A DNA stretch of 32,000 nt from assembly GCA_028279745.1 (NCBI GenBank), contig JANQNC010000001.1, forward strand, positions 30,001 to 62,000. The letters are read 5' to 3'. The notes under the pieces are model-generated. The model did no database searches, was not told where the DNA came from, and was given only the letters and a program-made list of their open reading frames with translations. Numbering within the stretch: the stretch's first letter is position 1; every line of letters starts with the position of its first letter. Below are positions 3,990 to 25,280 of the stretch, piece after piece. The translations under genes were made by a program, and so were the position numbers. This DNA comes from Candidatus Nanoarchaeia archaeon. Its GTDB lineage: Archaea > Nanobdellota > Nanobdellia > Woesearchaeales > JANQNC01.

Positions 3990-5282
3990 ATGAAAAGGGG
4001 TCAGATAACAGTCTTTATAGTGTTAGGAATAGTTATAGTGATACTGGCATCAACATTCATATTCATAAGAAATTCTGCAATAGAAGAAGATAAGGGAGAA
4101 ATAGTATTTGACAGCTCAGACCCTGTGAAAGTCTACATAGAAAACTGCCTGGAAAGCAAGATGGATGATGTGATAAGATTAGTAGCATTCCAAGGAGGAC
4201 ACTATAAAGCAAACGGATATTCTTTCAACAAAGATTTTGACATAAACCTGTCAGCAGAGATACCTTATTACTACTATGATTCAATAGATCTTTCAACTAA
4301 CTTGACAACCATCGAAAGCGAGCTTGCGCTAGGTATAAAAGACGCAATAGAGTACTGTGTTGATTTCTCACCATTCACATACCCTGTAACTGCAGAAGTT
4401 GACAGAGCAATGGTTGAGACCTCCATAAATGTGAAATCAGTGGATAGTGAGATAGAGCTGCCTGTAGAGATAGAAAGGCAAGATGGAATAACATCAATAA
4501 CTGGGTTTTCAGTATCGATGCCTTCAAACATTTACACTTTGTACAATGCTGCAAAAGAGATAAATGAAGAACAGAAAAAGTATGACAATCTGATATGTTT
4601 GACATGCATAGCAAAAGTAGCAAATGAAAATGACATATACCTATCAAGCTTTGAGATAGAAGATAGTGATACTTATGCAACTGTCTACTCATTAAACGAC
4701 CGAAGCCAAGACGTAGATGGATGGGTGACATTCTCATTTGCACATGGGTTTGTATTAGGAAAAGAAAAAGATGGGAATGTATCGTTTGGTTTCATCGAAC
4801 AACAACTAGCATATGCAGACTCAGAATTTTATTATGATGTAAACGTATCTGGGGCAGTTAAATTTTCAGATAACTCAGACCTGTTTGAGATAGATAGTGT
4901 GACAGGAGTTATTAACTTTACACCTTCTAAATCCGATTTAGGGAACTGGATAACAACAATTAAAGCAAAAGATATAAACAACGAAACAGCATCAAGATCA
5001 TTTTTATTAAAAGTTGAGGTTCCACCCTTAAGATTGTTGGAACCATCCCCTGAGTTAGTGGCTAAAGTAGGTCAGCCATTCAGCTACACCTTCGAAACAA
5101 ACTCAGATGAACAGTTACAATTTTATTCAAACTCAGATCTATTTGAATTGGATAGGATGACGGGAAGAGTATACTTCATACCAACACCTGATGATGTTGG
5201 AGAGTATAGTTTCAGTTTGATCGTGGTGGATGAGAGAGATAACATACTAGTTAAACAGTTGGAGATAAACGTAGTACAATGA
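3990..5282 (+). CDS. pilin-like (class III signal peptide) modular surface protein with two cadherin-like repeats
   Basis: The 430-aa N-terminus MKRG|QITVFIVLGIVIVILASTFIFI has basic residues, then G at -1, Q at +1 and a ~22-aa hydrophobic helix. This is the archaeal prepilin-peptidase-type signal. The head domain is shared with ORFs 15845 and 18871 (V..[YF][IV].[NE]C-x8-[IV]R..[GA].[QH]GG[HY]; [IVL]PY[YW]). Confidence 0.75.
   Translation: MKRGQITVFIVLGIVIVILASTFIFIRNSAIEEDKGEIVFDSSDPVKVYIENCLESKMDDVIRLVAFQGGHYKANGYSFNKDFDINLSAEIPYYYYDSIDLSTNLTTIESELALGIKDAIEYCVDFSPFTYPVTAEVDRAMVETSINVKSVDSEIELPVEIERQDGITSITGFSVSMPSNIYTLYNAAKEINEEQKKYDNLICLTCIAKVANENDIYLSSFEIEDSDTYATVYSLNDRSQDVDGWVTFSFAHGFVLGKEKDGNVSFGFIEQQLAYADSEFYYDVNVSGAVKFSDNSDLFEIDSVTGVINFTPSKSDLGNWITTIKAKDINNETASRSFLLKVEVPPLRLLEPSPELVAKVGQPFSYTFETNSDEQLQFYSNSDLFELDRMTGRVYFIPTPDDVGEYSFSLIVVDERDNILVKQLEINVVQ
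4791..5276 (+). repeat. two tandem cadherin-like / He_PIG-type putative Ig domains (protein-level repeat)
   Basis: aa 268-344 and 353-429 align: F.Y.V....(K/Q)F.(D/S)NSDLFE(I/L)D..TG.(I/V).F.P...D.G.....I...D. This is the typical dystroglycan-type cadherin-like pattern. Confidence 0.6.
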
Positions 5283-7372
5283 GCAAAAAATTATTTGGGA
5301 TAACAGGAATATTGTTTTTGTTAGTTTGCACTTTGGTCGTTGCACAAGAAGATGATTTCTACTCATTTGACCAAAACCAGCAGCAAGAGTTCTTATTAGA
5401 CAATCCAGACTCGGCAGACTTTGACGTTTACGCAAGAGATTACCTTTTAGCATCAGACTTTTCAGACATTCAAGACTTGACAGTTGCGGAAGATTTCTTT
5501 AGATCAGATGATGGATCAAATCTTGCAAACGTAAATGACAACAAAAAACTTTTTGAAAGATATATTGGGGTGCAGGGAAGCAAGATGACCATGCTGGGAA
5601 ATCTTAAAGGATTTAGTGAGTTGGGGGATCTTCAAGGAAAAAATCAAAACATAAACCTTGATGACTTTTTAGAAAGCCCTGCAAAAGATAAATATGAATT
5701 ATTTGTAGATGGAGATGGAACATTAAGAATAGTAACCAAACAAGATCTGATAGTGAAGTTTACAGGAACACTAGCACCAAATCCTGCAGGAGGATTTGAC
5801 CTTGATGATGGAACATTTGAAGACAACAAGATAAAAGGTGGAAAAGGGTTGGTGTTTGATGAAGGCGCAAACTTGGTGGATGGAACAATAACACACTTTA
5901 ATGGAATAGAATTTGAAGGTGACACAAGAGTAAGCATAGGAACATCGAGGTATGGAGATGTAGGGACTGCAGAAGTTGATTATGTAAATGTGTTGGATGG
6001 AGGAACAATAAAATCAGTAGAAGCAGGAAGCTCAGCATTCATAGCGGGAGATGTACAAATAACAGACTACGATGCAATAGACGACCCGATAAGAATCCCA
6101 AGAGGACAAACATTAAACGTAAATGGGGTGAGTATGACTGCCCCATTTGAAACGACTGCAGTTGATTTTGGTAAGAAATCATTGGTTGAGTTAGCAGCAG
6201 GAGCAAGCGCAGAAAGATACACAAACTATGTTAGATTTGTATCTGATGACAGGATAGAAGGATTTGGAAGTGAGGATTTTGAGATAAGCTTTAACTCAGA
6301 AAACTTTGTATCTGAAGCGGATGACCCTTCTAAAGAAGATGATGTACAAATATTACTAAACTCTGCAAACTTCAAGATAAACAACAAGGATGGAAAGTTA
6401 AGCTTTGGATTATCAGATGGAAGCCAGATAAACATAGGGGATAACGAATACTTTGTTCAGGAAGGGAATATACTAAAAACCCCTGGGATGACAGACAAAA
6501 GCGTAACTCATGAAATATCATCAGCACCAGGAGATAGTGTAGTCACAGTAGATGATACAGGAACATCAGTAAACGTTATAGGAGGAAAAAGTGACTTTTT
6601 AGTTGTAGATGCAGCAGACCTGCTACTTGCACGAGTGCAAGACCCAGACGCAATCCAATTCAGGATCAATGATATAGTAAACAAGATAGAGCTGGGTGTT
6701 GATTTGACAAGCAGCGACATAAACTATCTAAAAACATTGTACAAAGGAGTTGCAGTTGGGGGGGCATGGAAATTAGGCTATAATTCAGGAAAAGCACTGA
6801 ATGCGTACATTTCAGGAAAAGGAGGAGATGTTGATTTTGATCCTGACTTATGGAGAGAATCAAACATAGTAAGCAAAAAAGTATTTCCCGAAATAAAAAG
6901 AGATGTAAGAAACTTGGTTGCGGGAGGACAAACATCAGGAACAATACATGAACTAGTAGAACCAATAAGACCAGATGACCAACTAAAAGACACAAAAGGG
7001 ACAGACCCTGAGTTGTTCTATGCAAGCCACAACTCATTCTTAGATGGGACGTGGGAGTTGGGGGATGATGGAAAGATACACTTCAACCTAGAAGTTAATG
7101 ACCTTTACGACTTTGAAAAATACTCGTCAGATGAAGGGGATGAACCTGGCACGATAAGGAAAGTAACACCTTTACCTATGGGGCAGGGCAAGGTAATAGA
7201 CCTACCTGGCTCATTAGCATACCATCTTGAAAACATAAAAGATGAAGATGGTGAGCCGTTAGCAAAAAGATTCAACATGCATACAGAATGGGAAGAGACA
7301 ATAGAAGTAGATTGTACAATTTATGAGTATGCAGATGACACTTGTATAAAAGATGAAGAACAAGGGGGTTAA
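5279..7372 (+). CDS. large secreted protein, function unknown (697 aa)
   Basis: Sec-type signal MSKKLFGITGILFLLVCTLVVA|QEDD. ATGA overlap with the upstream pilin-like gene. Acidic, beta-rich, G/D-rich middle, and a C-terminal ~230-aa globular part with no motif I recognise. Confidence 0.75.
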   Translation: MSKKLFGITGILFLLVCTLVVAQEDDFYSFDQNQQQEFLLDNPDSADFDVYARDYLLASDFSDIQDLTVAEDFFRSDDGSNLANVNDNKKLFERYIGVQGSKMTMLGNLKGFSELGDLQGKNQNINLDDFLESPAKDKYELFVDGDGTLRIVTKQDLIVKFTGTLAPNPAGGFDLDDGTFEDNKIKGGKGLVFDEGANLVDGTITHFNGIEFEGDTRVSIGTSRYGDVGTAEVDYVNVLDGGTIKSVEAGSSAFIAGDVQITDYDAIDDPIRIPRGQTLNVNGVSMTAPFETTAVDFGKKSLVELAAGASAERYTNYVRFVSDDRIEGFGSEDFEISFNSENFVSEADDPSKEDDVQILLNSANFKINNKDGKLSFGLSDGSQINIGDNEYFVQEGNILKTPGMTDKSVTHEISSAPGDSVVTVDDTGTSVNVIGGKSDFLVVDAADLLLARVQDPDAIQFRINDIVNKIELGVDLTSSDINYLKTLYKGVAVGGAWKLGYNSGKALNAYISGKGGDVDFDPDLWRESNIVSKKVFPEIKRDVRNLVAGGQTSGTIHELVEPIRPDDQLKDTKGTDPELFYASHNSFLDGTWELGDDGKIHFNLEVNDLYDFEKYSSDEGDEPGTIRKVTPLPMGQGKVIDLPGSLAYHLENIKDEDGEPLAKRFNMHTEWEETIEVDCTIYEYADDTCIKDEEQGG

Positions 7373-8562: not shown

Positions 8563-9126
8563 TTATTTAGACTGGAAACCACCTTTTCCAACCCTTATGA
8601 AGAGCTGTATGCCTCTTCTTTTGTCTTCAGGGGATTCTTGTTTGATTCGGATACCGATGTCTGAGTAGCCGTATCCCTTTTTCTTTTTAGCCGTCTGCAT
8701 ATATCTAAAATAGATCGGTATTGAGATGCCTGGTTGGGTGATGTCGTGTTCTATGTCTATACCCATGCCAAAGTATTCAGTTCCAACTTCTCCTTCGGGG
8801 AGACTGTCTTTTACTCCGTAATGTTCATTTTTATGGAATGGTCTAAACAGTCCTGCCTTTACGGTTGGGCCATTGATGATACGAACGCTTTCAATTCTTT
8901 CGTCGTAACGACCTCCTTCAAAACCTGCGCCTGCATCTATCATAACTTGTTTGTTTAGTATTGTGCCGAAGTTAAGAGTTACGGTGTGATCAGATAGTGC
9001 TCTCCAGGAAAGGCTGGGTCCTGTTGTAAATTCTGCACTTTTAGAAGGTGTTGCAGCATAAGCTGTTGTAAGTGCTGTAAGTATCCCGGTTAAATTTCTT
9101 GCTTTAGATTTTATTGATTTATACAT
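8563..9126 (-). CDS. secreted beta-rich protein, paralog of 26285-26923 (187 aa)
   Basis: Signal MYKSIKSKARNLTGILTALTTAYA|ATP. About 8 segments have alternating hydrophobic/polar residues (HTVTLNFGTIL, TEYFGMGIDIEHDI, GIQLFIRVGKGGF). The N-terminus MY[KQ].IKSK is shared with the 26285 ORF. Confidence 0.6.
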   Translation of the reverse strand: MYKSIKSKARNLTGILTALTTAYAATPSKSAEFTTGPSLSWRALSDHTVTLNFGTILNKQVMIDAGAGFEGGRYDERIESVRIINGPTVKAGLFRPFHKNEHYGVKDSLPEGEVGTEYFGMGIDIEHDITQPGISIPIYFRYMQTAKKKKGYGYSDIGIRIKQESPEDKRRGIQLFIRVGKGGFQSK

Positions 9127-9384: not shown

Positions 9385-12300
9385 ATGATATTTCTGATAG
9401 TGACAATTCCGTTCTATGTTGCAGACGTAATGGCTCTGCCAGAAGATAACTATAATTATCCAGGACATCAGATAACAAAAGTTTGGCTCTATGGAAACGA
9501 TGAAATCAATGGTGCATTAAGAGAATCGTCAGAGACGATAAAAGTAAGAGTAGAGATTAATGTAGCAGACGTTTTACCACACCAAGTTTTATTTAACAAT
9601 GTAGAACAGTTTAACAATTGCTCAACACAATTTGGATTAAGTTACTGTACATATGAAGCACCGCACCCAAGCGTGATAGGTGTACAACCGTTTTCAGTGA
9701 GGTACAGTTCAGACATCGTAACAGGAAACTATTACATAGATAATACTGCACCGGCAGTCAATAATATTGCAGCAACACCTGATAGTGTGGGAGTGGGAAA
9801 TGTAACATTAAGCTATCAAGCACATGACTACTACCTATCAACAGATTTCTCAGGATGTTCAGGAATAAGTGAGTTACAGATAATAGAAGAAGGAACACTA
9901 AGGGAGACAATAAATGTCAACACAACAGACTGTGTTGTTACAGACACAATGGCTTATGATCCTGTGGGGATTACAGGTGAAAGAAGAAATTCAACAATCT
10001 GCATGAAAGCAATAGATAACTTCGGACAAGAATCTGAAGATAGTTGTATTGAAGTTTTAGTCGATAATGCACTACCACAAATATCTGCACCTTACATAAT
10101 ACAAAACAACGTAAAAGTAGATTTCTTACAATCAGGACTACAAACATTCGACATAGCAGTTAACGACACATACGGAGATATAAACTTGATAACGATGAGT
10201 TCTATCTCATTAGACAAAGTAAACGAGACAGCAAGCTGCATCAACGGAGTTTGCAAATGGAGCTCAATAATCTATAACGTGGATAATGCAACAACAGCAT
10301 TTGATGCACAGTTTTACATAAATGATGTTTATGGAAACTCAGACGTTGTGACTACAACAATACCTGTTGTAAAAGACGACTTAGCACCGGTGATAGAATC
10401 AGTGGCATCAACATACACAGCAGAAGGGGTAAACTATTTCGGAATAAAAGATAACACAGTAATAGCAACAATAACCGAAGGAGGGTCAGGATTAAACCCA
10501 CTAAATGTTAAGGCAGACTTTGCGCCTGTAGGGGGGAGATTAGAGACTGCAGATAATTGTACAGTATCAGGATCAATAAACTACTGTGGTTGGTATGACA
10601 TAGACACAACAATAGAAGGAACATTTGGGGTTACATTTACAGCAGTAGACAATGTAGGAAATGTGGCAGTATCAAAAACAGAATCAATCGTAGTTGATAG
10701 AACCCCTCCAAGCACAGACTCATACTTTATAGGAGCAGATGGAGCACCATCAGCGCCAGAAGATAATGAAAGCTTAACAAACGCAAAAGGATTACAACTA
10801 AGTATAACATCACAAGCAGGATATGAATTCTACCAAGTAGGAGATGATTTAGAAATCTCATTTATACTGTCTGATACAGAATCTGGGATAAGTGATGTAG
10901 ACTCTAGTGTGAATCTGTCAGGCATAACCCTTGAAGGAGTTGCTTATCCGACATGCACACTGATCAGCGAAGAAGTCTACGGTGTTTATGATTGTGTGTT
11001 TACAGCAAGACAAATCTTAGGACCAAAAATTGGAGCAAAACTAAGATTCAACATATGCGACAATGCAGGAAACTGCATACCTTACATAGAAGAGATAGAC
11101 ATAAGAGAATCAGAAGCAGGAGTTGCGGATTTCTGGAGAATAGTTGTTGAAGGAAACATGCCAAACGAGATAGACAGGCAAACAACAGCACTAGTACAGC
11201 AAAGAATGTACTTCAATCTGGCACTAAGATCAAAATCATCAGGTTCAATAGAACCAATCTTTATGGAAATTACAGACTGTGGGCCACAGGCAGCACAAGC
11301 ATTCTTAGCAGATACACCATCCTTACTTGGGTACACAAGAGGAAGCACAGAGGCATGGATGAAACTAACATTAGCACAACAAAGCATAGAAGTTGATAAT
11401 CTAACATTTGAATGCAGAGCAAGCATAGTTACAAAACACGGACAAAAAATATCACAACCAGAAATTGAAGTGTTTAACGTAACTGTACCATTGTACAACA
11501 TGCCACTAGGTGAGATATCAGACAATGTACAAGAAAAAATAGACGAAGTGCAGAATGGTTGGCTAGTACAGGGAGAATGGATAGGATCATTTAATAACTT
11601 AATGCAAAGGATGAAACAGACGTGTGCGTTGATAAGCACACTATCAACAGCAGTAACAGCATATAACTCATTCGCACTTGCGTTTGGGTGGACAAGATTC
11701 ACAGGAATACTACTGCCAATACAGAAAGCGATAGAAGGCACATCAGACGCACTAACATTTGCATTTACGGGAATAGTTAAACTTGTACAGTACACTTGTG
11801 TTGTGGGTAGCTGTCAGATAATCCCAAAAATAGTTGAGCAGTTGGGATTAAAAAATACAAACGAACTGGTACAAAAAATTATTTTGACATTAATAGCGCC
11901 GAATTCAAAAGGTTCAGCACTAACCGCGATACCTGGAATGGGACAGATAAACCAACAAGACAGTCTATGGTTAAGTGTTTTCACACTATGTCTACCAGGA
12001 ATCATTTACAACTTACAGAAAGCAAGAAACATAGAATGTAAATACATACAGTGTCTAAGAGATGAAGTGCCGCAAGGTAAACCAGTCTTTATCTGTGACT
12101 CGATGAGAGGATACGAATGGTGTACATATGTAACACACCCATTCTTAGAACTAATACCATTCAAAGCATTAGCAAGCCAACTTTACCATCTGGTAGAGGA
12201 TCTGTTCAAGAATCCATTATCTTTAGGATTGGGCTTGGCTGCATTGGCGTGCTGGGCAATACCTAACTTTGAAACTAAAAAAGGGTGCCACATAACTGCA

Positions 12301-12432
12301 GGAGTACAAGCAACAATCAGCGTAGCTTACTATATCTACAACTTCAAAGACCAATGGGAGTTAGATGCAGATTATTGTGAATTGGTGTTGAATGAAACAG
12401 AAGAAGAGGATGAAGAGGAGGAAGAAGAATAA
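9385..12432 (+). CDS. giant cell-surface protein: Ig-like repeats + hydrophobic Cys-rich C-terminal region + poly-Glu tail (1015 aa)
   Basis: Hydrophobic N-terminus MIFLIVTIPFYVADVMA|LPEDN. Four or more ~105-aa repeats, many N-x-S/T sequons, hydrophobic C-terminal segments, the C-x2-GI-x2-NL-x12-CL-x12-C-x8-C module and the tail ETEEEDEEEEEE. The start is uncertain: the GAGGGGG SD-like element sits 37 nt upstream of the ATG. Confidence 0.8.
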   Translation: MIFLIVTIPFYVADVMALPEDNYNYPGHQITKVWLYGNDEINGALRESSETIKVRVEINVADVLPHQVLFNNVEQFNNCSTQFGLSYCTYEAPHPSVIGVQPFSVRYSSDIVTGNYYIDNTAPAVNNIAATPDSVGVGNVTLSYQAHDYYLSTDFSGCSGISELQIIEEGTLRETINVNTTDCVVTDTMAYDPVGITGERRNSTICMKAIDNFGQESEDSCIEVLVDNALPQISAPYIIQNNVKVDFLQSGLQTFDIAVNDTYGDINLITMSSISLDKVNETASCINGVCKWSSIIYNVDNATTAFDAQFYINDVYGNSDVVTTTIPVVKDDLAPVIESVASTYTAEGVNYFGIKDNTVIATITEGGSGLNPLNVKADFAPVGGRLETADNCTVSGSINYCGWYDIDTTIEGTFGVTFTAVDNVGNVAVSKTESIVVDRTPPSTDSYFIGADGAPSAPEDNESLTNAKGLQLSITSQAGYEFYQVGDDLEISFILSDTESGISDVDSSVNLSGITLEGVAYPTCTLISEEVYGVYDCVFTARQILGPKIGAKLRFNICDNAGNCIPYIEEIDIRESEAGVADFWRIVVEGNMPNEIDRQTTALVQQRMYFNLALRSKSSGSIEPIFMEITDCGPQAAQAFLADTPSLLGYTRGSTEAWMKLTLAQQSIEVDNLTFECRASIVTKHGQKISQPEIEVFNVTVPLYNMPLGEISDNVQEKIDEVQNGWLVQGEWIGSFNNLMQRMKQTCALISTLSTAVTAYNSFALAFGWTRFTGILLPIQKAIEGTSDALTFAFTGIVKLVQYTCVVGSCQIIPKIVEQLGLKNTNELVQKIILTLIAPNSKGSALTAIPGMGQINQQDSLWLSVFTLCLPGIIYNLQKARNIECKYIQCLRDEVPQGKPVFICDSMRGYEWCTYVTHPFLELIPFKALASQLYHLVEDLFKNPLSLGLGLAALACWAIPNFETKKGCHITAGVQATISVAYYIYNFKDQWELDADYCELVLNETEEEDEEEEEE
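9739..10710 (+). repeat. tandem Ig-like domain repeats (protein-level, ~105-aa period)
   Basis: Boundary motif D-x-[TAL]-[AP]-P at aa 119 (DNTAP), 227 (DNALP), 331 (DDLAP) and 438 (DRTPP). Each is preceded by [AI].DN.GN-type strands (AIDNFGQ, INDVYGN, AVDNVGN), with a further ICDNAGN at aa 557. Confidence 0.65.
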
Positions 12433-13100
12433 TGGCATATCAACAATATCCTCAACAACAACCTCAACCACAAAGAGGGATGCAACAATACTACAGACCA
12501 CAGTACACGCCTCAACCACAAGCACCGCCACAAGGAACACATAAACATACGTTGTTAGTTGCAATGGCAGTCTTACTTGTTGTTGTGTTAGTAGCATTAG
12601 TTTTTGTCTATGTAAATGTGGATGGAACTGAACAAGGAACAACAGAAGAAGTAACATACCCTTATTCAACAGGCGAACTTTCACCAGATGAATTAGTGGA
12701 ACCAGAATTTAAGATAAACAACTTCAAATTCGCATCATTAGTTGATGACAATTTAAACTATCAAGAAACACCTGCAACATTCAACCGAGGAGATAAGTTT
12801 TGGGTGTACTTTGAGATAAACAATCTGGCCTCAGGAGACATGAGAGGAAAATACAGAACAAGCTATGATGAATATATTGCAGTAAATGATCCAAACGGAA
12901 ATCCAGTAACTGACTTAACCGGATTTTTAGGAACAACAACAGAAAATGCTGAAGAGGGGAAGTTCTATAGTTTCCCAGTTGCACACCAGTTACCAACATC
13001 TGTTGATTATGTTCCAGGAAAATATGATCTGACAATCTTCATAGACGATGCAATAAATGAGGAAAGCGCAGCAATATCAGCAAGCTTCATACTAAAATGA
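12432..13100 (+). CDS. single-pass membrane protein: Q/P/Y-rich N-terminal tail, TM, extracellular beta domain (222 aa)
   Basis: aa 3-35 YQQYPQQQPQPQRGMQQYYRPQYTPQPQAPPQG. TM LLVAMAVLLVVVLVALVFVYV (aa 41-61) has basic residues before it and acidic residues after it (N-in). The start overlaps the upstream stop (TAATG). Confidence 0.75.
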   Translation: MAYQQYPQQQPQPQRGMQQYYRPQYTPQPQAPPQGTHKHTLLVAMAVLLVVVLVALVFVYVNVDGTEQGTTEEVTYPYSTGELSPDELVEPEFKINNFKFASLVDDNLNYQETPATFNRGDKFWVYFEINNLASGDMRGKYRTSYDEYIAVNDPNGNPVTDLTGFLGTTTENAEEGKFYSFPVAHQLPTSVDYVPGKYDLTIFIDDAINEESAAISASFILK

Positions 13101-15829
13101 AAAAGATAATCTTACTAACATTGATGGTTTTAGTAGTTGTGAGTAGTGCAATGGCATTACAAACAAAACCAGTATCTATCTCTGACGGTCAAGACACATA
13201 CAGATATGTTTATGTGAGAGACGACCCAATAGGTGCAGATGGATGGTACTTAATAGGTAAAGATAATTCGGTTAGTCCGGTAAGTGAAATAGCTGAAGAT
13301 CTAGGGGGGCATGATGATTTAGTGTCTTCTTTAGTTGACAAGAACTTTGAAGATGGAGTAATACAAATCCAAAGAAATAATCCTGGAGTTGTAATGTATA
13401 ATGATAGATTAGTTGATAATAACGCAATTGCAGCAGTACTTTGGGGAAAAGACAATCAACCAGCATCAATAAGAAGCATAACGGGAACAGGAGATACAAG
13501 AACCGCAACATCAAAAAGTTCAACAGTACAACAATCAACAATAGCTTATAATGAAGCAAATGAAAGAGGTACGTTTACAGTAACAACCGGCAGGGGGAAT
13601 GTTTACACTTATGAAGAAGATCCAAACAATAAAGGAATCTACAGATGTGCCTTTAAAGGTACGGGTGCACCTTGTGGAACTTACAAACTAAATAATAATA
13701 ACCAGTTTGAGTGTGTTGGAGGAGATTGTAGAACTGGCTCATTGAGCACCTTTAACACAGTACAAGGAGTAGATAATGCATTTGCATACGCTAAATCACA
13801 ATCAGACACAATAGTAACACAACCTGAAGAACCTGCAACAGAACCAAATTTAGATGGAGAACCTGCGGAACCTTCTACGCCATCTTCACAATCACCAACA
13901 TCATTTAACGATCCAAGAATTGAGATAAAAACTGCGGGAAACACAACATCTGTCAACATGTATTATGTAAATGCAAGAACTGGATCATTAGAAAGAGCAA
14001 AACTAGCAGGAGACTTTGAAGGATACACTATGTCAAAAGAAGTCTTTGACAAACTAGGTGTAGGAGAAGACATATCTTACGATCAGTTAGCAAACTTACT
14101 GTCAGATCCAAACATAGACATACAAAACCTAAAACCATCACAGATAACAACAGATGCATCAGGAAACATACAAATATCGAAGTTTGATGACCAAGGAAAG
14201 CCTGCAGGAACTGTAGATGTGAATGTTAATAATGGAGCTTATACCATAAAAAGCACAACCACCGAAGATGGAAAACAAGTTGAAAGAACAGTACAATACA
14301 GAACAGATGGACTAATAGAGCATGGAGGAGACATAGTAGCAGGCAATGGTAAAGCTTACACAAGAACAGGACAGTTAGCATTATACAATGATTTGGCAAT
14401 ACCTCCTGGAGGGTATGATCAAACAACACAGAACAGAATTAATGATCTAACTTCAACAGCAAATTCACTAACGTCGACAATAGACAACACGAATAAAGAG
14501 ATAGAAAATCTTGCTAAGGCAAGTGCAGATATACAACAACAGATTGCAGCTTTAGCAAATGCGCCGGGAGCTGCTGAACAGGAACAAAGGCAACAGTTAC
14601 AAAAAGATTTAGAAGATAACAAAGCAAAACAAGACGAACTAAACAAAAAGAATGACAAAGATAAAGCAGATCTTAAGAAAGCACAACAAGATCTAACACA
14701 AACACAAGAAAACGGAAAAGTAACAAGACCTATAGATCTAAGGAAGGTAAACGTAAGCAACATATTCTCAACAGGCACACAATCAGGACTTTGGGCAGCA
14801 GATGATTATTGTGAAAAGCAAGGACTGACAGGAGGATCATTAGATAATTGTATAGCAAACATAAACGACAACTACCTAAGACAGGAAGGAGGAACATTCT
14901 TCACAGGAGAGTTTGGAAGAAGTTTCAGAAGAGATCACCCAAGCCTAACAAGAGGCATAATACTAACAAGAGCTATAACCGACAAGCTAAGTGCTGGTGC
15001 GTCAGCGATGCAGGCTGGAGCAACAGCAGGAGCAAAACTGTGGAGCTTCTTCCCAGGAACAGATGAGGAGCCGTTGTGGGATGTAGGAGATACAGAATTT
15101 GGGCAATTTGCACAAAGATATCTAGATAACGATAACATAAGAGCAGAAGCATGCAGGCACTGGCTAAACCAAGGGTCAGGAGAGATTGGAGTTGTGGATC
15201 CAAGCAGACCGCACCTAAGAGGAGACATATTATTCCTAGATGATAACAGGGATACAATAGGTGCATACGTTGTAGCTGAAAGAAGCTCATTTATAGATGT
15301 GCCGGGAGAAAGAAGAAACCAGACAAAACAATACTTCTACAAAATAAACTATAAGATAAGCGCAATAAAAGGAAAGATAGAATACAATATCAACTTATGC
15401 AGCGGAGATGCAGAGGATTGTAAAAAAGGAACAGGGGTAGTGGTTGAAGGATTATTCCCAGAAGAAGTCAAACTTAAGAAAGGCGAAACAGAGGATAGAA
15501 GCGGTGCACAAACACTTACAAAATACAGCGACAGAAGTTATGGGTCAGTTTGTGTTGCTGTAAGTAAAGGATTCAAAAATTTCAGATTTACAGATTCAGA
15601 TGAAGGAGCGTTCTGCGCAAACATAGCGGAGTCATCAGGAGGAATGCAAGCATACGAGTTCAAAGATCCAAGCGATGATCCAAACGGAGCAGGGGTGTGG
15701 CCGTTCTACGCTCCTGATGAGTATGAAGACTCAACAGCAGACGATGATGAAGATGACAGTGATGATGATAGCGGGAGTGATGACTCATCAGAAGAAGATA
15801 CAAGATATCAAGATCCAGGAAGCTGGTAA
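13097..15829 (+). CDS. large secreted protein with coiled-coil stalk and poly-acidic tail (910 aa)
   Basis: Sec signal MKKIILLTLMVLVVVSSAMA|LQT. P/E-rich linker (QPEEPATEPNLDGEPAEPSTPSS). Heptad-like Q/K/E/D/L-rich region at aa ~445-545. Cys-containing C-terminal domain and the tail DEYEDSTADDDEDDSDDDSGSDDSSEED. ATGA overlap with the upstream gene. Confidence 0.8.
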   Translation: MKKIILLTLMVLVVVSSAMALQTKPVSISDGQDTYRYVYVRDDPIGADGWYLIGKDNSVSPVSEIAEDLGGHDDLVSSLVDKNFEDGVIQIQRNNPGVVMYNDRLVDNNAIAAVLWGKDNQPASIRSITGTGDTRTATSKSSTVQQSTIAYNEANERGTFTVTTGRGNVYTYEEDPNNKGIYRCAFKGTGAPCGTYKLNNNNQFECVGGDCRTGSLSTFNTVQGVDNAFAYAKSQSDTIVTQPEEPATEPNLDGEPAEPSTPSSQSPTSFNDPRIEIKTAGNTTSVNMYYVNARTGSLERAKLAGDFEGYTMSKEVFDKLGVGEDISYDQLANLLSDPNIDIQNLKPSQITTDASGNIQISKFDDQGKPAGTVDVNVNNGAYTIKSTTTEDGKQVERTVQYRTDGLIEHGGDIVAGNGKAYTRTGQLALYNDLAIPPGGYDQTTQNRINDLTSTANSLTSTIDNTNKEIENLAKASADIQQQIAALANAPGAAEQEQRQQLQKDLEDNKAKQDELNKKNDKDKADLKKAQQDLTQTQENGKVTRPIDLRKVNVSNIFSTGTQSGLWAADDYCEKQGLTGGSLDNCIANINDNYLRQEGGTFFTGEFGRSFRRDHPSLTRGIILTRAITDKLSAGASAMQAGATAGAKLWSFFPGTDEEPLWDVGDTEFGQFAQRYLDNDNIRAEACRHWLNQGSGEIGVVDPSRPHLRGDILFLDDNRDTIGAYVVAERSSFIDVPGERRNQTKQYFYKINYKISAIKGKIEYNINLCSGDAEDCKKGTGVVVEGLFPEEVKLKKGETEDRSGAQTLTKYSDRSYGSVCVAVSKGFKNFRFTDSDEGAFCANIAESSGGMQAYEFKDPSDDPNGAGVWPFYAPDEYEDSTADDDEDDSDDDSGSDDSSEEDTRYQDPGSW
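14420..14720 (+). other. predicted coiled-coil segment
   Basis: TQNRINDLTSTANSLTSTIDNTNKEIENLAKASADIQQQIAALA...QRQQLQKDLEDNKAKQDELNKKNDKDKADLKKAQQDLTQTQE. Proline is absent apart from one central AP, and the region is charged and Gln-rich. Confidence 0.6.
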
Positions 15830-18046: not shown

Positions 18047-18071
18047 CTGAACATAGGTGAGGGGTGGAAGA

Positions 18072-18881: not shown

Positions 18882-20721
18882 ATCACAAGTGACCCAATTC
18901 ATAGCAATGGGAATCATACTTGTGATAGCAGTAGCAATATTCTTATTCGTAAAAGACCAATTTGTGGGAGCAGAAGTAGTATCAACAGAGTTCGTGCCAG
19001 TAGCAGAATACGTAAAAGAATGCGCATCACAAACAACAGACGAAGCAGTAAGACTGTTGGGGTTACAAGGAGGCTATGTATACATGCCAGACTTCATCAG
19101 GTTTGACCCATTAAGCTACGTAAACAATGCAGGCGTAACACTGCCTTACTGGTATCATAAAGGAGAAAGCAGAGCTCCAACGTTAGAGCTGATGGAAAAT
19201 GACATATCAAGATATGTAAAAGAAAACATTGAAGGATGCACACTGGGCTTTGAAGGGTTTGAGGAAGAGTTTGAGATAGAACAAACAGGCGACATAGAAG
19301 TAGAAACGCACATAAGCGATGAAGAGATAGAAATAGAACTAGTGTACCCCTTATCTTTAAAGCTAAGAGGACAAGAACAAGTTGAAGAAATCACAAAAAT
19401 AAGAACAACAAACAACATAAGATTGGGAAAAATATACTCATTAGCAAAAGACATAATGGACACAGAAAATGAACAAACATTCTTAGAAAACAATACCCTG
19501 GACATGATCGCAGTAGCAGACTTACCTTATGAAGGGTTAGAGGTGGCTTGTGGAAAAGACTGGAGCGTACAAGGACAGATAAAACCACAAGTGCAAGAGA
19601 TGGTGAAATACAATTTCCACTACTTAAATTTCAAAAACACAAAATATGAACGATCAGGAATAGACTACTTCGAATCATTCTACGAACAAGAAGTAGGAAC
19701 ATCTAACTATAAAGACATAAGAGTAAAAACAATATATGACGAAGAGTACGGTATGGAGATAGACGTATATCCCTCACACGGAGACATAACAGAAGGAATC
19801 GACTTAGGGATGCCAGACGTAATACCTTGTCTAAATGTCTATCATCACTTTTACAACATAGAATATCCTGTAGTATTCCAACTAACAGACGAAAAGAATC
19901 CAGAAGACACATATAACTTCTTCTTTGCATCGCCAGTCATAATAGACAAAAACTCAGCAAGAAGATCAAAACCAATAGAAGTAGTAGATGACAGCTTCAA
20001 TACGATAACCTCAGACGATTATTGTGCAACAGCAGAATATGAGCTAACTGTATTTGCAGTAGATAAGTTGTCAGGACAAGAGCTAGCAGATGCAAAAGTT
20101 GAATATCAATGTGTTAACTTTAACTGTAAGATGGGCGTAACAGAACAACCAACATTTGACGGAATCCCAATCGCAAACTCACTACCAAAAGCAGTAGAAA
20201 GATTCCCAGGATGTGTTAACGGATTTATAATCACAACAAAAGAAGGATATCTAGATGGGGAGCTGCAAGAAACCGCAGACGAATCAACCCACGGAGGAAG
20301 CGTGGCAGTAGAGATGACCCCTTTAAGGGATCTAGGATATTCATTCGTGATAAAAGAAGGAGACTCAACAAGACTCCCAAGAGATAATGAAGTAATATAC
20401 ATGGTTATAGAAGACAAAGAGAACGATTACAGAACCGCAATATACTACCCAACAGACTTAGAACAGTTCAATAGATTAAGCTTACCGATAAGAGACGCAG
20501 TATATGATGTTGATGCAAGAATAATAGTTGATGAAACGGTGGTTGGAGGCTTAGAGATACTAGAATGGGAAGTTACACAAGCAGATGTAGAAAGAGCAAA
20601 CTTTTTAGGATTAACACTACTATCATCAGACCCACAACCGACAACAACAGAAGACTATGTGGAACTGTACAGAAATGTAATAATGACTGAGTCAGAGAAT
20701 TATGAACCAAGACTAGAATGA
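18871..20721 (+). CDS. pilin-like (class III signal peptide) modular surface protein (616 aa)
   Basis: A GTG start overlaps the 6-TM gene by 11 nt. N-terminus MSTKS|QVTQFIAMGIILVIAVAIFLFV. Full-length paralog of ORF 15845 (head domain plus a prealbumin-like sandwich at 20038-20271 with ITTKEGYLD). Confidence 0.8.
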   Translation: MSTKSQVTQFIAMGIILVIAVAIFLFVKDQFVGAEVVSTEFVPVAEYVKECASQTTDEAVRLLGLQGGYVYMPDFIRFDPLSYVNNAGVTLPYWYHKGESRAPTLELMENDISRYVKENIEGCTLGFEGFEEEFEIEQTGDIEVETHISDEEIEIELVYPLSLKLRGQEQVEEITKIRTTNNIRLGKIYSLAKDIMDTENEQTFLENNTLDMIAVADLPYEGLEVACGKDWSVQGQIKPQVQEMVKYNFHYLNFKNTKYERSGIDYFESFYEQEVGTSNYKDIRVKTIYDEEYGMEIDVYPSHGDITEGIDLGMPDVIPCLNVYHHFYNIEYPVVFQLTDEKNPEDTYNFFFASPVIIDKNSARRSKPIEVVDDSFNTITSDDYCATAEYELTVFAVDKLSGQELADAKVEYQCVNFNCKMGVTEQPTFDGIPIANSLPKAVERFPGCVNGFIITTKEGYLDGELQETADESTHGGSVAVEMTPLRDLGYSFVIKEGDSTRLPRDNEVIYMVIEDKENDYRTAIYYPTDLEQFNRLSLPIRDAVYDVDARIIVDETVVGGLEILEWEVTQADVERANFLGLTLLSSDPQPTTTEDYVELYRNVIMTESENYEPRLE

Positions 20722-23700
20722 AATCAGAATACCTAAAACAAATAATCGCGAACTTCATAATATTGATAATACTCTTCTTGCCGCATGCACAAGCATTGTC
20801 GATATCAAATGTTAATATAGATGAGATAACAAGCAATTCTGCAAGGATTACATGGAATACAGATAACGCAAGCAACAGTATCGTAAGATATGGAGACACA
20901 CAACAGATACTGGAGTCAGAAGAAAAAACAGAAAGTGTAGTTAATCATTCTGTGACCATCTCTGGATTGAGTAAGGACACAAAATATTATTACAGCGTAA
21001 GATCTGGAGAAATATTTGATAACAATGCAGGAAGCCTGTATACTTTCAGAACATCAGAAGAAGAAATTGTTTCTGAGGATGTTAGCGAAAATGTTAGTGT
21101 CAATGAAACAACAACAGACAATGTAACTTATGTATATGAGGGAACACCTGCAATATCACTAGAAACAATACCTGAATTTACAAGAGAAAGAGACTTCCTG
21201 ATAAAAGGAACAACAAATCCAAATGTTGTATTAAGGTTTTACATCAACGACCACAAAATACCCGAACAGATAGCAGGAACAGAAAGATTTAGCGTGAAAT
21301 CGGGGGTGGATGGCAAATTTAACGCAACAATAAGACTACTATCTGGGTTTTATAACAGCACTTTGGGTCTGAATATCATAAAAGTAGAAGCCACAACAGC
21401 AGATTACTTCAGAAATTATGCATACCAAACAATAGTATATGATGCAGTACCTCCAAGACTTACAGTTAACACAATACCTTTAACTTCAAACCAAGGAAGC
21501 ATAACTGTAAAAGGATCAACAAACGAGGCAACCAAGATAGAGATTGTTGTAAACAATGCAACGCAGTCAACAGTTGAAACAGGAGAAAATAATATCTTTG
21601 AAACAACAGCAACACTATCAACAGGAATAAACCAACTAGAAGTAATAGCAATAGACAAAGCAAACCATACTGCAGTACACAGACAGACAGTAACGCTAGA
21701 CAACACACCACCTTCAATCGTGTTTGAAGAACTTGACGAAACATACCATTTCACAATTGCCACAATAAAAGGAAACACCTCTGAAGGTAATGTAAAAATA
21801 AAAGTAACAAACACAGGATCAGCAAGAATAGATTATGGAGATCCTTCTGGAGTGAGTAGAGTAAGAGCCACATACAATACCACAAACGTAACGACAATAA
21901 GATACGGAAGACAAGAAAACGTAACGGTGGGAGCAGACATAGATGTGTTAGGAAGCATTATTGGATACGAGAAGGAGACAACTTCTGGTGAAAATGGAGC
22001 GTTTACAATAAGAGTTGGTTTAATCAACGGAACAAACAATTTACTCTTTGAGCTAGAAGATGCTGCGGGAAATAAAGCAATAGTGGAGCAAACTCTACAG
22101 ATGGAAGCATCTACGGGATTGTGGAAGATAGGAAGAATAACCACTTTACCAAATGAAGTTTACACAGATAATCTAGGGAATGGAAATGTAGATATTGGAT
22201 TGACGTATGACTTATTTTATCTAGGCTCACAAGCAGAAGATCTAAACTCATTAAGGATAGCAGCAACACTAGATGGAAGCAGATTGAATAATGAATTATT
22301 TAGAGTATCCGACAAACCATACGTATACTGGAACCCAGACCAAAACAAAGCTGTTGTGTACCAAGAGATACAGATGATAAAGTATACTGGCAATCCACAA
22401 GAACTGCCAGACCAAGCAGACTTTGGAATGCAAAACAGGATAACATACAGAATAGGAAGAGAAGCAGAATATGATGAAAAATTATTTTATGATTCAGGAG
22501 TATCCGTTGAGAAACCGCTGAAGTACAGCAGGTTCTTAACACCAGAAATGATCAATAAAAGCCTAGAAAGACTAAACAAAACAATAGCAATACTAGAAAA
22601 AGCATTAGAGATAGCAGAGATAGGAACATATGTATCATTAGGAGCATGTCTAGCGATGACAGTCTACACATATGTGGCAGGTGCAGGTGATAGTCCATTG
22701 CCAAGTGGAGGGCAATTAGAAAAACTATTCTTAGCATGTGATAGACTATTATGTCCAACGGTTCCACCAAAATGTACAGACACAACATTCTCAGATGATG
22801 AATACAAAGGAAATGGGGTGTATGAAAAACAACTTATGGAAGGGAATGAAGTTGTAGGCACAGTAGTTGTACAACACTCAGTCAATCAACCACAAGGATG
22901 TCCACAAGCACCACCAAACTACGCTTATGTAAAAGTAACCACGACAGGATCAGCAGATACACAACTATTTGGACAACAGTTCCCAGGAGCAAATAATAGT
23001 CCAAGCTGGTATCAAACAACACCAATAAGACTACAACAAGGAACAGTAACATCAATCAACAGCAACTGCTTCTATACAGATGTAAGGAATCAGTCAGCAT
23101 TTGAGCCACAACTAGCAAAAGCAGGATGCTACACGCCCGAAAACCCATTCTATGACAACACAAAATGTCTATGGAACTTCAAAAAAGGCAATAATCCAAC
23201 AATGACAGACCTAAATCCTTATGATGACATAATCACATCAGTAAGATGTGGATGTGTAACAGGAATAAGAGGAAATTTAGAAAACATAATAGGAATACTG
23301 GAAGGAATCAGAGGATGTTTACAACAAGCACAAATCGGAGAAGTCCGAGGAGGGTATTGTGAAAGATTAGTTGCACAATTCGCATGCGATTGGATATCTT
23401 GGTTGGTAAAACAAGTAGTCAATGCAGATTGGCAAGGAATAATAAAATCAAAAGCATCATCAGAATACATAGGAAACGTACAACAAAGAATAGGTGAAGT
23501 AAACAGTAATCTACAAGCAAGATATGGTGCAATAGCAGCAAGCAGAGTTGGATTATCAGCAGATCAGCTATTCAACAAAGCATGTATAGCTGCAATCACT
23601 GGTGATTGGACAGACTTACAGAACTTATTAAGAGAGTCAACAAGAATCCCAGTCAAACCAGTAATAGGACCAATGCTTCCAGAATCAAGAGTAACAGCAT

Positions 23701-25280
23701 ATAATCCATTCACAGGAACAATCTCAATTAATTATCTATTGACAATAGGTGTGATGTCGGGAGGACAAGAAGTTAGTGGAAAGGTAGAGATATGGTGCGA
23801 TCCAAACTACCCAACACCAGACGGAATGCCAGTAATGTGTCCTGACAGACGAATAAAGTTAGGAGATAGAGGAGTTTATGTGCCAAGAGATGGGGCAGTA
23901 TCAGAAAACTGGGCATACCAAACAGACGATATACCTTACTGGGGCAATGTAGCGATAATGACCCTTGACTACCAAGTTGGAGGAGAGCAGAAACATGAAG
24001 AAAAAGTAGAACCGATCGTAAGAAAAGGAGGGTTGATAGGACAGTGCCATTGGCAAATCTTCCCACCAGTAATCGTATGTGAATCAATAGTTCCAGGAGC
24101 AGAAGCATTACTAGAAGCAGAACAGATAAGAAAGTCACCAGACGTAAGAACATACTACCCTGGAAACGTGTTAGGGGTTAGGATAGATGCAAGAAGAGTT
24201 GGAGCTATCACTAATCGTACTAACGATCTAGAAAAAGTTGCAGTAGTCTATGAAATGACAATACCTGGAACAGGACAAGATGGACAGGCTCGAACTGTTG
24301 ATAATAAAAATAACTTAAATGCATACAAACCATTCGCATCACTAAAAGGAAAAGTTGACGATACGGTATTTGTATCATTACATGAGTTCCCATCAGAAGC
24401 ACAAGTACAGTATGAAACAAAACAAATACTTGCAAGAAGGATAGCATATCCTTCACGATTGATCGAGAAAGATGAAGAGATTATTGTAAGAGCGTTTACA
24501 ACAGGAACACAAACAACTGCACAAACGCCAAGAAATGTATTGAGAGTGTTGACTGATGGACTGAATGATAACAAGTGGACAGAAGATGGTGTGGCTCTAA
24601 GGTATAGAGCAGATGCAAATGTGACTTTAGGAAACATAACCCTTGTAGAGATAGAAGCAGATGCAGAACAGACCCAATCATTAACCATAGAGATAGAAGC
24701 GGATGGAGTTAGAACTCCTGTACAGGTAGGTTTTGCAGCAGGAGAATCAAAAACAGTTACAGAATATCCCGCAAGCTCAAATTATAAATTAGCGGTTACT
24801 TTATGGGAAGACACAGACAACAATAACGCAATAGATCCATCACAAGATAAACTAGTGTTGTACAGAGGATATAACCAATCAGAACGATTCACATTTGGAT
24901 TTAATCCAGAACCTGCATGCGGAATAACTCCTCGGGTTGAGATATTAAAACCTAGAAATGATGAACTATTCTGTAAAGGTGAGTTAGAACTTGCATACTG
25001 GGATGATTGTAACCAGATAGATCAGGTTGGGTTATTCTATGACAAAGCAAACGAGACAAATAAGATACAGTTGCCATCACCAGCAAGATCCGAAGCAGGC
25101 TACAGACAGTATTTAGATGTTGATCTATCAGGCTTAGGTTTTGAGAACAATCAAGAAGTAGAGTTAATTGTGAGAGTAGAGGATAATAGGAACAAAGTAG
25201 CAACTAATAAACAGACTATCAGCTTTAGCAGTAATAGATGTGTTAGTGCGGGTGGAAGTGTAGACACTAGTGAAGAATAA
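20718..25280 (+). CDS. giant cell-surface protein: FN3 + Ig-like repeats + Cys-rich core (1520 aa)
   Basis: Signal MKSEYLKQIIANFIILIILFLPHAQA|LS, an FN3 domain and three Ig-like repeats. It has the same [FL]W[RK]I...PNE region, helical/hydrophobic segment and Cys-spaced module as ORF 9385. Sequon-rich. ATGA overlap with the upstream gene. Confidence 0.85.
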   Translation: MKSEYLKQIIANFIILIILFLPHAQALSISNVNIDEITSNSARITWNTDNASNSIVRYGDTQQILESEEKTESVVNHSVTISGLSKDTKYYYSVRSGEIFDNNAGSLYTFRTSEEEIVSEDVSENVSVNETTTDNVTYVYEGTPAISLETIPEFTRERDFLIKGTTNPNVVLRFYINDHKIPEQIAGTERFSVKSGVDGKFNATIRLLSGFYNSTLGLNIIKVEATTADYFRNYAYQTIVYDAVPPRLTVNTIPLTSNQGSITVKGSTNEATKIEIVVNNATQSTVETGENNIFETTATLSTGINQLEVIAIDKANHTAVHRQTVTLDNTPPSIVFEELDETYHFTIATIKGNTSEGNVKIKVTNTGSARIDYGDPSGVSRVRATYNTTNVTTIRYGRQENVTVGADIDVLGSIIGYEKETTSGENGAFTIRVGLINGTNNLLFELEDAAGNKAIVEQTLQMEASTGLWKIGRITTLPNEVYTDNLGNGNVDIGLTYDLFYLGSQAEDLNSLRIAATLDGSRLNNELFRVSDKPYVYWNPDQNKAVVYQEIQMIKYTGNPQELPDQADFGMQNRITYRIGREAEYDEKLFYDSGVSVEKPLKYSRFLTPEMINKSLERLNKTIAILEKALEIAEIGTYVSLGACLAMTVYTYVAGAGDSPLPSGGQLEKLFLACDRLLCPTVPPKCTDTTFSDDEYKGNGVYEKQLMEGNEVVGTVVVQHSVNQPQGCPQAPPNYAYVKVTTTGSADTQLFGQQFPGANNSPSWYQTTPIRLQQGTVTSINSNCFYTDVRNQSAFEPQLAKAGCYTPENPFYDNTKCLWNFKKGNNPTMTDLNPYDDIITSVRCGCVTGIRGNLENIIGILEGIRGCLQQAQIGEVRGGYCERLVAQFACDWISWLVKQVVNADWQGIIKSKASSEYIGNVQQRIGEVNSNLQARYGAIAASRVGLSADQLFNKACIAAITGDWTDLQNLLRESTRIPVKPVIGPMLPESRVTAYNPFTGTISINYLLTIGVMSGGQEVSGKVEIWCDPNYPTPDGMPVMCPDRRIKLGDRGVYVPRDGAVSENWAYQTDDIPYWGNVAIMTLDYQVGGEQKHEEKVEPIVRKGGLIGQCHWQIFPPVIVCESIVPGAEALLEAEQIRKSPDVRTYYPGNVLGVRIDARRVGAITNRTNDLEKVAVVYEMTIPGTGQDGQARTVDNKNNLNAYKPFASLKGKVDDTVFVSLHEFPSEAQVQYETKQILARRIAYPSRLIEKDEEIIVRAFTTGTQTTAQTPRNVLRVLTDGLNDNKWTEDGVALRYRADANVTLGNITLVEIEADAEQTQSLTIEIEADGVRTPVQVGFAAGESKTVTEYPASSNYKLAVTLWEDTDNNNAIDPSQDKLVLYRGYNQSERFTFGFNPEPACGITPRVEILKPRNDELFCKGELELAYWDDCNQIDQVGLFYDKANETNKIQLPSPARSEAGYRQYLDVDLSGLGFENNQEVELIVRVEDNRNKVATNKQTISFSSNRCVSAGGSVDTSEE
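20799..21053 (+). other. fibronectin type III-like domain
   Basis: ISNVNIDEITSNSARITWNTDNASNSIVRYG...HSVTISGLSKDTKYYYSVRS...YTFRT is the classic FN3 pattern (ITW.T, V.YG, H.V.L.GL...T.YYY.V.S). Confidence 0.8.
21144..22097 (+). repeat. three tandem Ig-like repeats (protein-level)
   Basis: The repeat starts align: TPAISLETIPEFTRERDFLIKGTTNPNVVLRFYIN / PPRLTVNTIPLTSNQGSITVKGSTNEATKIEIVVN / PPSIVFEELDETYHFTIATIKGNTSEGNVKIKVTN. D..PP boundaries at aa 242 and 328. Confidence 0.65.

Follow-up and report, generated by a model that had tools for sequence, protein, structure and literature searches.

A conserved cysteine hairpin marks an undescribed alpha-helical domain family in two large, probably secreted proteins of a Woesearchaeales archaeon

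The DNA studied here is a stretch of 32,000 nucleotides (nt) from contig JANQNC010000001.1 of Candidatus Nanoarchaeia archaeon, called the window below. It is archaeal (LonB, MetRS) and closest to metagenome-assembled genomes (MAGs) of Woesearchaeota. Two of its open reading frames (ORFs) encode large proteins, protein A of 1015 amino acids (aa) and protein B of 1520 aa. An initial annotation, made from the sequence without database searches, had pointed out a 45-aa module with four identically spaced cysteines in both. It was read as a disulfide- or metal-stabilised module, suggesting a common membrane-proximal or oligomerisation core. The analysis shows that these 45 residues are the best conserved piece of a shared domain, and that A and B are distant paralogues sharing an extracellular all-alpha domain of about 200 to 250 residues. 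The relevant features of both proteins are as follows (Ig, immunoglobulin; TM, transmembrane).

9385-12432, plus strand: protein A, 1015 aa, with Sec-like N-terminal leader, Ig-like region, C-terminal all-alpha Cys-rich core and acidic tail
11452-12429, plus strand: A-core, aa 690-1015, all-alpha, with 11 Cys, each at least 94% conserved in 67 sequences
11623-11691, plus strand: 'hydrophobic Cys helix' of A, CALISTLSTAVTAYNSFALAFGW, aa 747-769, within a 42-residue helix, not TM
11797-11814, plus strand: CxxxxC motif of A, CVVGSC, aa 805-810, counterpart of CDRLLC in B
11929-12168, plus strand: extended homologous module in A, aa 849-928, spanning the 80 hhalign columns
11989-12123, plus strand: 45-aa module in A (C869...C913), helix ~870-894, loop 895-900, helix 901-922
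20718-25280, plus strand: protein B, 1520 aa, with Sec-like leader (AQA|LS), fn3/Ig-like domains, Cys-rich alpha core with beta insert, beta-sandwich and long C-terminal region
22485-24122, plus strand: B-core as modelled with AlphaFold2, aa 590-1135
22620-22688, plus strand: 'hydrophobic Cys helix' of B, IGTYVSLGACLAMTVYTYVAGAG, aa 635-657, inside a 48-residue helix, not TM
22737-22754, plus strand: CxxxxC motif of B, CDRLLC, aa 674-679
23193-23432, plus strand: extended homologous module in B, aa 826-905, aligned by hhalign
23253-23387, plus strand: 45-aa module in B (C846...C890), helix ~847-873, loop, helix 878-902

Translation of 11989-12123 and 23253-23387 yields both 45-mers as first reported (aa 869-913 of ORF 9385..12432 and aa 846-890 of ORF 20718..25280). 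The quoted segments, their coordinates and the equal spacing C-x2-G-I-x2-N-L-x12-C-L-x12-C-x8-C are therefore correct. Aligned without gaps, the two modules have 10 identities in 45 positions and a BLOSUM62 score of 14, and BLASTP of A against B finds just a 29-residue stretch with an E-value of 0.51, which is not significant. Four Cys in register within 45 residues have a probability of about 1e-4 under uniform Cys placement, and of about 4e-3 with shuffled Cys gaps or with placement confined to Cys-rich regions. The four-Cys register is thus unusual but not overwhelming. Since the pairwise BLASTP comparison is not significant, family profiles were needed.

The pairwise alignment of hidden Markov models (HMMs) that had been proposed as a check is significant. 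With hhalign, A against B gave P-values of 9.8e-5 (5 vs 15 sequences), 2.2e-5 (9 vs 16) and 2.5e-6 (67 vs 87), in the same register at all three depths, so that the support grows with deeper, independently built families. At 67 vs 87 sequences, the probability is 88.8% over 80 columns with a score of 54.1, compared to scores of 10 to 22 for reversed or column-shuffled controls. With all Cys masked, the score is 43.6 (P 6.7e-5) and the register is kept. A MAFFT alignment of 22 sequences placed the modules of both families, unguided, in the register described initially. In this alignment, three module Cys are invariant. The first Cys of the module is nearly so, and the same applies to one Gly, one Leu and the CxxxxC pair upstream. 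Next, an HMM built from the A family only ranked all 15 B proteins right behind that family, each matched at the module position. Based on this profile evidence, the controls and the Cys masking, the module is indeed conserved between otherwise diverged large proteins, and its homology in A and B can be regarded as established.

The spacing C1-x20-C2-x13-C3-x8-C4 is exact in 59 of the 66 A-type and 78 of the 79 B-type representatives, and the only distance that varies is C2-C3, with 12 to 15 residues. Many B-type proteins carry C-L-P-G-I as in A. Three divergent A-like proteins (at loci L008, L009 and L011) read PPCLPGILAKL...VCVN...QCDDYYDTQVCD and in addition carry VCDLVLCEDC, intermediate between A (TCVVGSC) and B (CDRVLCP). 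A hydrophobic Cys-containing helix had been noted ahead of the module; it is present in both proteins, and MAFFT aligns the two families there as well as at the CxxxxC motif. The latter is also found by hhalign as a second match, colinear with the module and weak by itself (P 0.07). Homology is probable over the whole alpha core, including the CxxxxC motif and the 'hydrophobic Cys helix'. Both window proteins share the features that define the superfamily, i.e. a helix-loop-helix that carries C1-x20-C2-x(12-15)-C3-x8-C4, in which C1 is followed by [LVI]-[PST]-G and C2 by L, and upstream a long helix with one Cys (C747 in A, C644 in B) followed by CxxxxC (C805/C810 in A, C674/C679 in B). These upstream Cys are at least ~89% conserved in the sequences covering the column.

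AlphaFold2 was run with family alignments made from the matches of an exhaustive search described below; the full-length alignment of the B family had 54 rows. The A-core is modelled with helices only, with a mean predicted local distance difference test score (pLDDT) of 85.4 and a predicted template modelling score (pTM) of 0.77, and its module forms a helix (181-205, core numbering), a six-residue loop and a second helix (212-233). The B-core reached a mean pLDDT of 74.8 and a pTM of 0.72, with the module as H258-284 / H289-313 (core numbering). The B-core opens with a 48-residue helix that includes the 'hydrophobic Cys helix'. A helix with CDRLLC at its end comes next, then a beta insert modelled at low confidence and a short helix ahead of the module hairpin, which is followed by three helices and a beta-sandwich. 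In both models, the long Cys helix precedes the CxxxxC helix, and an insert, a short helix, the hairpin and further helices follow in this order. Unrelated folds for the two segments had been named as what would speak against a common module. As both are predicted as a helix-loop-helix hairpin, this objection does not apply. Overall, we are highly confident of the homology and the fold of the shared domain.

No counterpart of the alpha core was retrieved with Foldseek for the A-core, either in the PDB (best E-value 0.37) or in BFVD (best E-value 1.1). For the B-core, the match is to the beta-sandwich alone (ApaG-like, E-value 5.7e-4), with none to the alpha core. PDB sequence profile searches with the cores gave no match, and neither did Pfam and NCBIfam scans of the cores alone; on full-length A and B, these libraries match in the N-terminal fn3/Ig-like parts alone. 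The Cys-hairpin alpha domain of A and B is thus an undescribed family without Pfam, NCBIfam, PDB or BFVD counterpart. The beta-sandwich that follows the alpha core of B (window 23900-24122, plus strand; aa ~990-1121) is conserved and confidently modelled. It has weak ApaG/DUF525-like and GH2 Ig-like similarity (the Foldseek E-value of 5.7e-4), probably reflecting a generic Ig-like fold.

Relatives were collected in several ways. Word-index searches for homologues returned one fragment each, P0001 (A-like) and P0002 (B-like), and five matches with the 22-sequence profile, this index missing most of the family. An exact-sequence lookup of protein A gave no record. With the B alignment, a pattern scan across GTDB genomes retrieved 13 loci, titled as 11 Woesearchaeota or Nanoarchaeota MAGs and two 'uncultured Methanosarcinales archaeon'. 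The latter two, L008 and L011, carry the same operon as the Woesearchaeota MAGs, so that their titles probably reflect an error in binning or labelling. Three loci were added by scanning metagenomes with the A alignment. ORF extraction and phmmer on the loci gave four A-like and 14 B-like proteins, and at their upstream edges, the B loci L008, L009 and L011 contain the three divergent A-like C-termini mentioned above. Scans of viral contigs with both family alignments yielded no relatives, so that a viral origin is not indicated.

The search for further members that had been suggested was made exhaustively with HMMER, using a balanced A+B profile against 1.84 billion representatives; a local check recovered most of both families. 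It returned 1208 proteins at an E-value of at most 1e-3, of which 633 at most 1e-10, where the 1208 are clusters at 50% identity. The best 150 of these 1208 and the earlier matches were sorted by architecture, and among the sorted proteins A-type and B-type separate cleanly. The 66 A-type proteins have ~1000 aa, with the module ending 78 to 169 aa (mostly 80 to 125) before the C-terminus. The 87 B-type proteins have ~1450 to 2300 aa if full length, with the module in mid-protein and ~600 to 1300 aa behind it. One A-like protein (L004:1-2685) has ~440 residues after the module, an architecture between the two types. In the B-type proteins P0003 and P0004, the last ~30 aa form an extra compact Cys-rich tail, C..GG.C...C.......LG.C....CC, which is absent from protein B of the window. 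The family members that were looked up are named only 'hypothetical protein', with a single organism named, Candidatus Woesearchaeota. The domain thus belongs to a large superfamily without a name, which we could trace only to Woesearchaeota/Nanoarchaeota (DPANN) archaea.

Conservation of the cysteines is high in both families. Eight of the 11 A-core Cys are present in 67 of 67 sequences, and in B the Cys C867 (86/86), C881 (87/87) and C890 (87/87) are never lost. Three module Cys are 100% conserved over ~150 representatives that are mutually less than 50% identical. Six sequences of the B family lack both C679 and C846 (phi 0.75), and C846 is never lost by itself, a pairwise loss which reads in the alignment as the signature of a disulfide. 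Further pairs of Cys co-loss in this family lie within the B-specific insert. C2 and C3 are placed symmetrically about the predicted loop in both models (201+215 in A, 278+292 in B, core numbering), and since C2-C3 is the only variable spacing, this fits a loop between them.

As to the location of the proteins, the N-terminal leader is the one strongly hydrophobic segment in a Kyte-Doolittle scan of A, and likewise of B. For the 'hydrophobic Cys helices', the 19-residue means stay below 1.5, the maximum in the cores being 1.55 (A-core aa 789-807), and in the AlphaFold2 models they are buried helices of a soluble bundle. By the same scan, neither A nor B has a TM helix beyond the leader or a C-terminal anchor near the module, and A ends in its acidic low-complexity tail. 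Since the leaders are the sole strongly hydrophobic segments and the helices are buried in the models, A and B are probably secreted and soluble, with a module that is not membrane-proximal. This part of the initial reading is not supported, the module lying ~100 aa from the C-terminus in A and in mid-protein in B. Because of the extracellular location (Sec-like leaders, no TM helix), disulfides are the likely form of the cysteines.

Bracing of the domain by disulfides is accordingly considered likely. The best supported pair would be C2-C3 (C890-C904 in A, C867-C881 in B), which may staple the hairpin beside its loop. Next in support, C1 may be bonded to the CxxxxC helix upstream, at its second Cys (C810-C869 in A, C679-C846 in B), and most tentatively, C4 might pair with the first Cys of CxxxxC (C805-C913 in A, C674-C890 in B). 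In A, the additional Cys C885, C956, C968 and C998 may provide further links; C885 and C998 are both missing from the divergent A-like group. Such bonds would stabilise the hairpin and connect it with the CxxxxC helix, giving a rigid bundle outside the cell.

Several other explanations were considered for this conserved segment. That A and B resemble each other by chance, or by convergence of unrelated Cys-rich helical segments, would agree with the BLASTP E-value of 0.51 and the ungapped score of just 14, but is extremely improbable. The profile P-value of 2.5e-6, with controls scoring only 10 to 22, and the signal that outlasts Cys masking argue against it, as do the intermediate sequences, the colinear upstream motifs, the same predicted order of secondary structure and the location of both genes in one operon, and on these grounds chance similarity was rejected. 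Instead of being paired in disulfides, the cysteines could also bind a metal, as a Zn or an Fe-S site. Their invariance is compatible with this, and cytoplasmic Cys clusters of archaea are often metal-binding. However, A and B carry secretory leaders, the Cys are spaced over ~45 residues on two helices, and the joint loss of C679 and C846 speaks for a disulfide. Moreover, no CxxC or CxxH motif occurs in the A and B module families, no His or Asp near the Cys is conserved in both, and paired CxxC/CxxH knuckles of the zinc-ribbon type are absent from the module. A metal site is therefore decidedly improbable and was rejected, which leaves the disulfide half of the initial 'disulfide- or metal-stabilised' proposal as the likely one.

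Two further readings place the domain at a membrane. As a membrane-proximal anchor beside a TM helix, the module would be consistent with flanking helices rich in small and hydrophobic residues. The lack of any TM segment in the cores and the position of these helices within a soluble bundle in the models led to its rejection, and with ~620 to 1290 residues following the module in full-length B-type proteins, an anchor at this place is highly improbable. The domain might also be membrane-active, i.e. a soluble bundle hiding semi-hydrophobic helices that are inserted into a host membrane during episymbiosis, in the manner of alpha-pore-forming toxins. The bundle would suit such a role, being all-alpha, with several helices that are semi-hydrophobic (CALISTLSTAV..., ALTFAFTGIVKLV..., LSLGLGLAALACW...), and part of a secreted DPANN protein. 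The hydrophobicity is not TM-like (maximum 19-residue mean 1.55), though, the multiple conserved disulfides, if formed as predicted, would impede unfolding for insertion, and Foldseek reveals no likeness to pore-forming toxins (best PDB E-value 0.37). This role is thus improbable.

A and B lie in a gene cluster from 3990 to 25280, whose products all have a hydrophobic segment at the N-terminus. The remaining genes of the cluster are listed below.

3990-7372, plus strand: third cassette, a 430-aa protein with class-III-like leader and a 697-aa secreted protein, with 4-nt overlap
12432-13100, plus strand: 222-aa single-TM protein between A and the pilin-like genes, with Q/P-rich N-terminus
13097-15829, plus strand: 910-aa secreted protein between A and the pilin-like genes, in the same order in L019
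15845-18046, plus strand: 733-aa protein with class-III-signal-like N-terminus KRG|QITVFIVIG
18057-18881, plus strand: 274-aa protein, conserved in the operon and predicted to have 5 TM helices
18871-20721, plus strand: 616-aa protein with pilin-like N-terminal hydrophobic segment MSTKSQVTQFIAMG and degenerate basic-Gly site (MSTKSQVTQF...)

From A to B, seven genes follow each other, encoding A, the small TM protein, the secreted protein, pilin-like protein 1, the multi-TM protein, pilin-like protein 2 and B. The same gene order is found in L019, with the same MetRS neighbour, and with variations in L004, L016 and L018, while the B-proximal half also occurs in L005-L013. No GxGD-type motif was found in the 274-aa 5-TM protein when read by eye. 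Like protein A (EEEDEEEEEE), the 910-aa protein ends in an acidic low-complexity tail (DDDEDDSDDDSGSDDSSEED). The cluster is flanked by small proteins on the opposite strand at 8563-9126 (minus) and 26285-26923 (minus), which share just the N-terminal 'MY.xIKSK...' leader (BLASTP E-value 0.024) and have no Pfam match.

The 430-, 733- and 616-aa proteins are paralogues, with the leader [KR][KR]G|Q[IV][ST].F[IV]I.G and, behind it, a common Y.E.C...QGGY region. A class-III-like N-terminus, [KR][KR]G|[QMNIF][IV][ST].F[IV]I.G, is kept in most of the 16 proteins compared and is degenerate in the 616-aa protein of the window. In 14 of the 15 loci with upstream sequence, the B-type gene is immediately preceded by the pilin-like gene orthologous to that of the 616-aa protein. 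A 4-nt overlap of the stop of this gene with the B-type start occurs in the window as well as at several loci (e.g. L002, L004, L005, L008, L009 and L016). The other paralogue, orthologous to the 733-aa protein, is found directly upstream of an A-like gene in L015 and L016, with a 4-nt overlap in L016. As pilin-like paralogues can adjoin either type of large gene, the operon looks like the result of an ancient duplication of a 'pilin-like + large protein' cassette. The 697-aa partner in the third cassette lacks the Cys module, and the cassette design is therefore more general than the module.

Because the Ig/fn3 arrays are variable and the alpha domain is the one constant part of both families, and because the leader-cleaved proteins lack an anchor and are each translationally coupled to a pilin-like protein, a role of the domain as docking hub is proposed. 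By a weaker inference, the variable N-terminal arrays would be the outward-facing, binding part of A and B. The conserved braced alpha domain may then act as the hub that holds the leader-cleaved large protein on the cell, by docking it to the translationally coupled pilin-like partner in the way a tip adhesin is held by minor pilins. Taken as a whole, a homologous, disulfide-braced extracellular alpha domain that docks to pilin-like partners is the best explanation of the data and is considered rather probable, while docking itself is put forward tentatively. The domain may instead be a core for self-association, an oligomerisation or stalk element in which the long helices of A, B or A+B copies form a coiled-coil bundle and Cys lock the oligomer. 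The very long helices (42 and 48 residues) at the start of both cores would suit this, as would the constant co-occurrence of A and B, which share just the alpha domain, and the odd Cys count of the A-core, which leaves one Cys for an intermolecular bond. On the other hand, the monomer models are compact and confident (pTM 0.77 and 0.72), with helices packed within one chain. Oligomerisation, the other role named initially, is considered less likely; it is compatible with docking and does not exclude it.

A number of observations weigh against the account of a braced docking domain. The evidence for docking consists of gene order and translational coupling only, and in the window A is not next to any pilin-like gene. 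One B-type gene, at L017, stands alone without an upstream pilin-like gene. The pilin-like leaders have no Pfam or NCBIfam match, including pilin and archaellin models, and genes for a type IV filament ATPase, a platform protein or a prepilin peptidase were detected neither in the window nor in the annotated flanks of L004, L005, L009 and L016. The disulfide map is derived from conservation, co-loss and helix arithmetic and not from S-S geometry, and the number of conserved Cys in the A-core is odd (11), so at least one must be free or bonded outside the domain. For the upstream part of the core, homology relies on the MAFFT columns and the colinear hhalign match of P 0.07.

The stand-alone B-type gene (L017:3476-8251) lies 2.5 kb from a gene for a T2SSE-family ATPase (L017:10763-12229), the sole hint of a link to type IV filaments.

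Disulfide-stapled alpha-helical hairpins are known from CHCH domains (twin Cx9C), plant alpha-hairpinins (CX3C...CX3C) and saposin-like folds. Like these, the module is a helix-loop-helix with Cys at fixed spacing on both helices, probably cross-linked outside the reducing cytoplasm. Its spacing differs from that of CHCH domains and alpha-hairpinins, being C-x20-C-x13-C-x8-C and not twin Cx9C or Cx3C. It cannot be counted among the twin-CX9C proteins, since helix 2 carries Cx8C, helix 1 of B-type proteins has no matching motif, and the extra Cys of A-type proteins gives a Cx4C out of register with C4. In addition, probably one Cys pair staples the module hairpin while the others tie it to a neighbouring helix, and the hairpin is embedded in a bundle of 200 to 250 residues within a protein of 1000 to 2300 aa, with no Foldseek match.

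For the operon, the closest analogy is with the tip complexes of type IV pili and type II secretion systems, i.e. minor pilins with the PilY1 adhesin and GspK-I-J. As in these complexes, a large non-pilin, adhesin-like protein is coupled downstream of a class-III or pilin-type gene. The pilin-like proteins here are very large, by comparison (430 to 756 aa), the cluster has no ATPase, platform or peptidase gene, and A and B have no beta-propeller or any other similarity to PilY1. A bindosome is formed in Sulfolobus by large secreted solute-binding proteins with class-III signal peptides and the ATPase/platform pair BasEF. It resembles the present system in its large extracellular proteins with pilin-type leaders, which do not require long pili and are maybe just surface-anchored; nothing comparable to the BasEF pair or to the solute-binding proteins was found here. 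Giant surface proteins of DPANN archaea are represented by the SPEARE proteins of Nanohaloarchaeota. Like A and B, they are very large secreted multi-domain proteins of episymbiotic archaea with a presumed role in host contact, but no common domain was detected, and the cores of A and B belong to no Pfam or NCBIfam family. A PilY-like adhesin is mentioned for archaeal type IV filament subsystem 4A (bioRxiv 10.64898/2026.04.22.720090). In the literature on DPANN and Woesearchaeota surface proteins, pilins and giant proteins, as far as it could be searched, neither the family nor the operon is described. The new part is thus the domain family, and the known kind to which it belongs is that of Cys-braced extracellular domains in surface proteins with pilin-like partners.

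Woesearchaeota and their kin, ultra-small archaea that are abundant and uncultivated, presumably live attached to a host, and to our knowledge their mechanism of attachment has not been established. Possibly, although this is more doubtful than docking itself, the operon encodes an undescribed DPANN-specific surface apparatus, in which two paralogous adhesin-like proteins sit on large pilin-like subunits via the disulfide-braced alpha-fold and serve in host recognition and attachment (or breach). If so, the Cys-hairpin domain would be a signature for finding this apparatus in metagenomes. The module is a compact and highly specific signature for a superfamily of 1208 clusters at 50% identity, and it marks a conserved operon in which pilin-like proteins are paired with large Ig-domain proteins. 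Two anonymous ORFs thereby yield a testable structural hypothesis, with a disulfide map and a docking partner. For annotation, this provides a new domain family, and for uncultivated DPANN archaea, candidate host-contact machinery that may be followed in enrichment cultures, metatranscriptomes and cryo-electron tomography.

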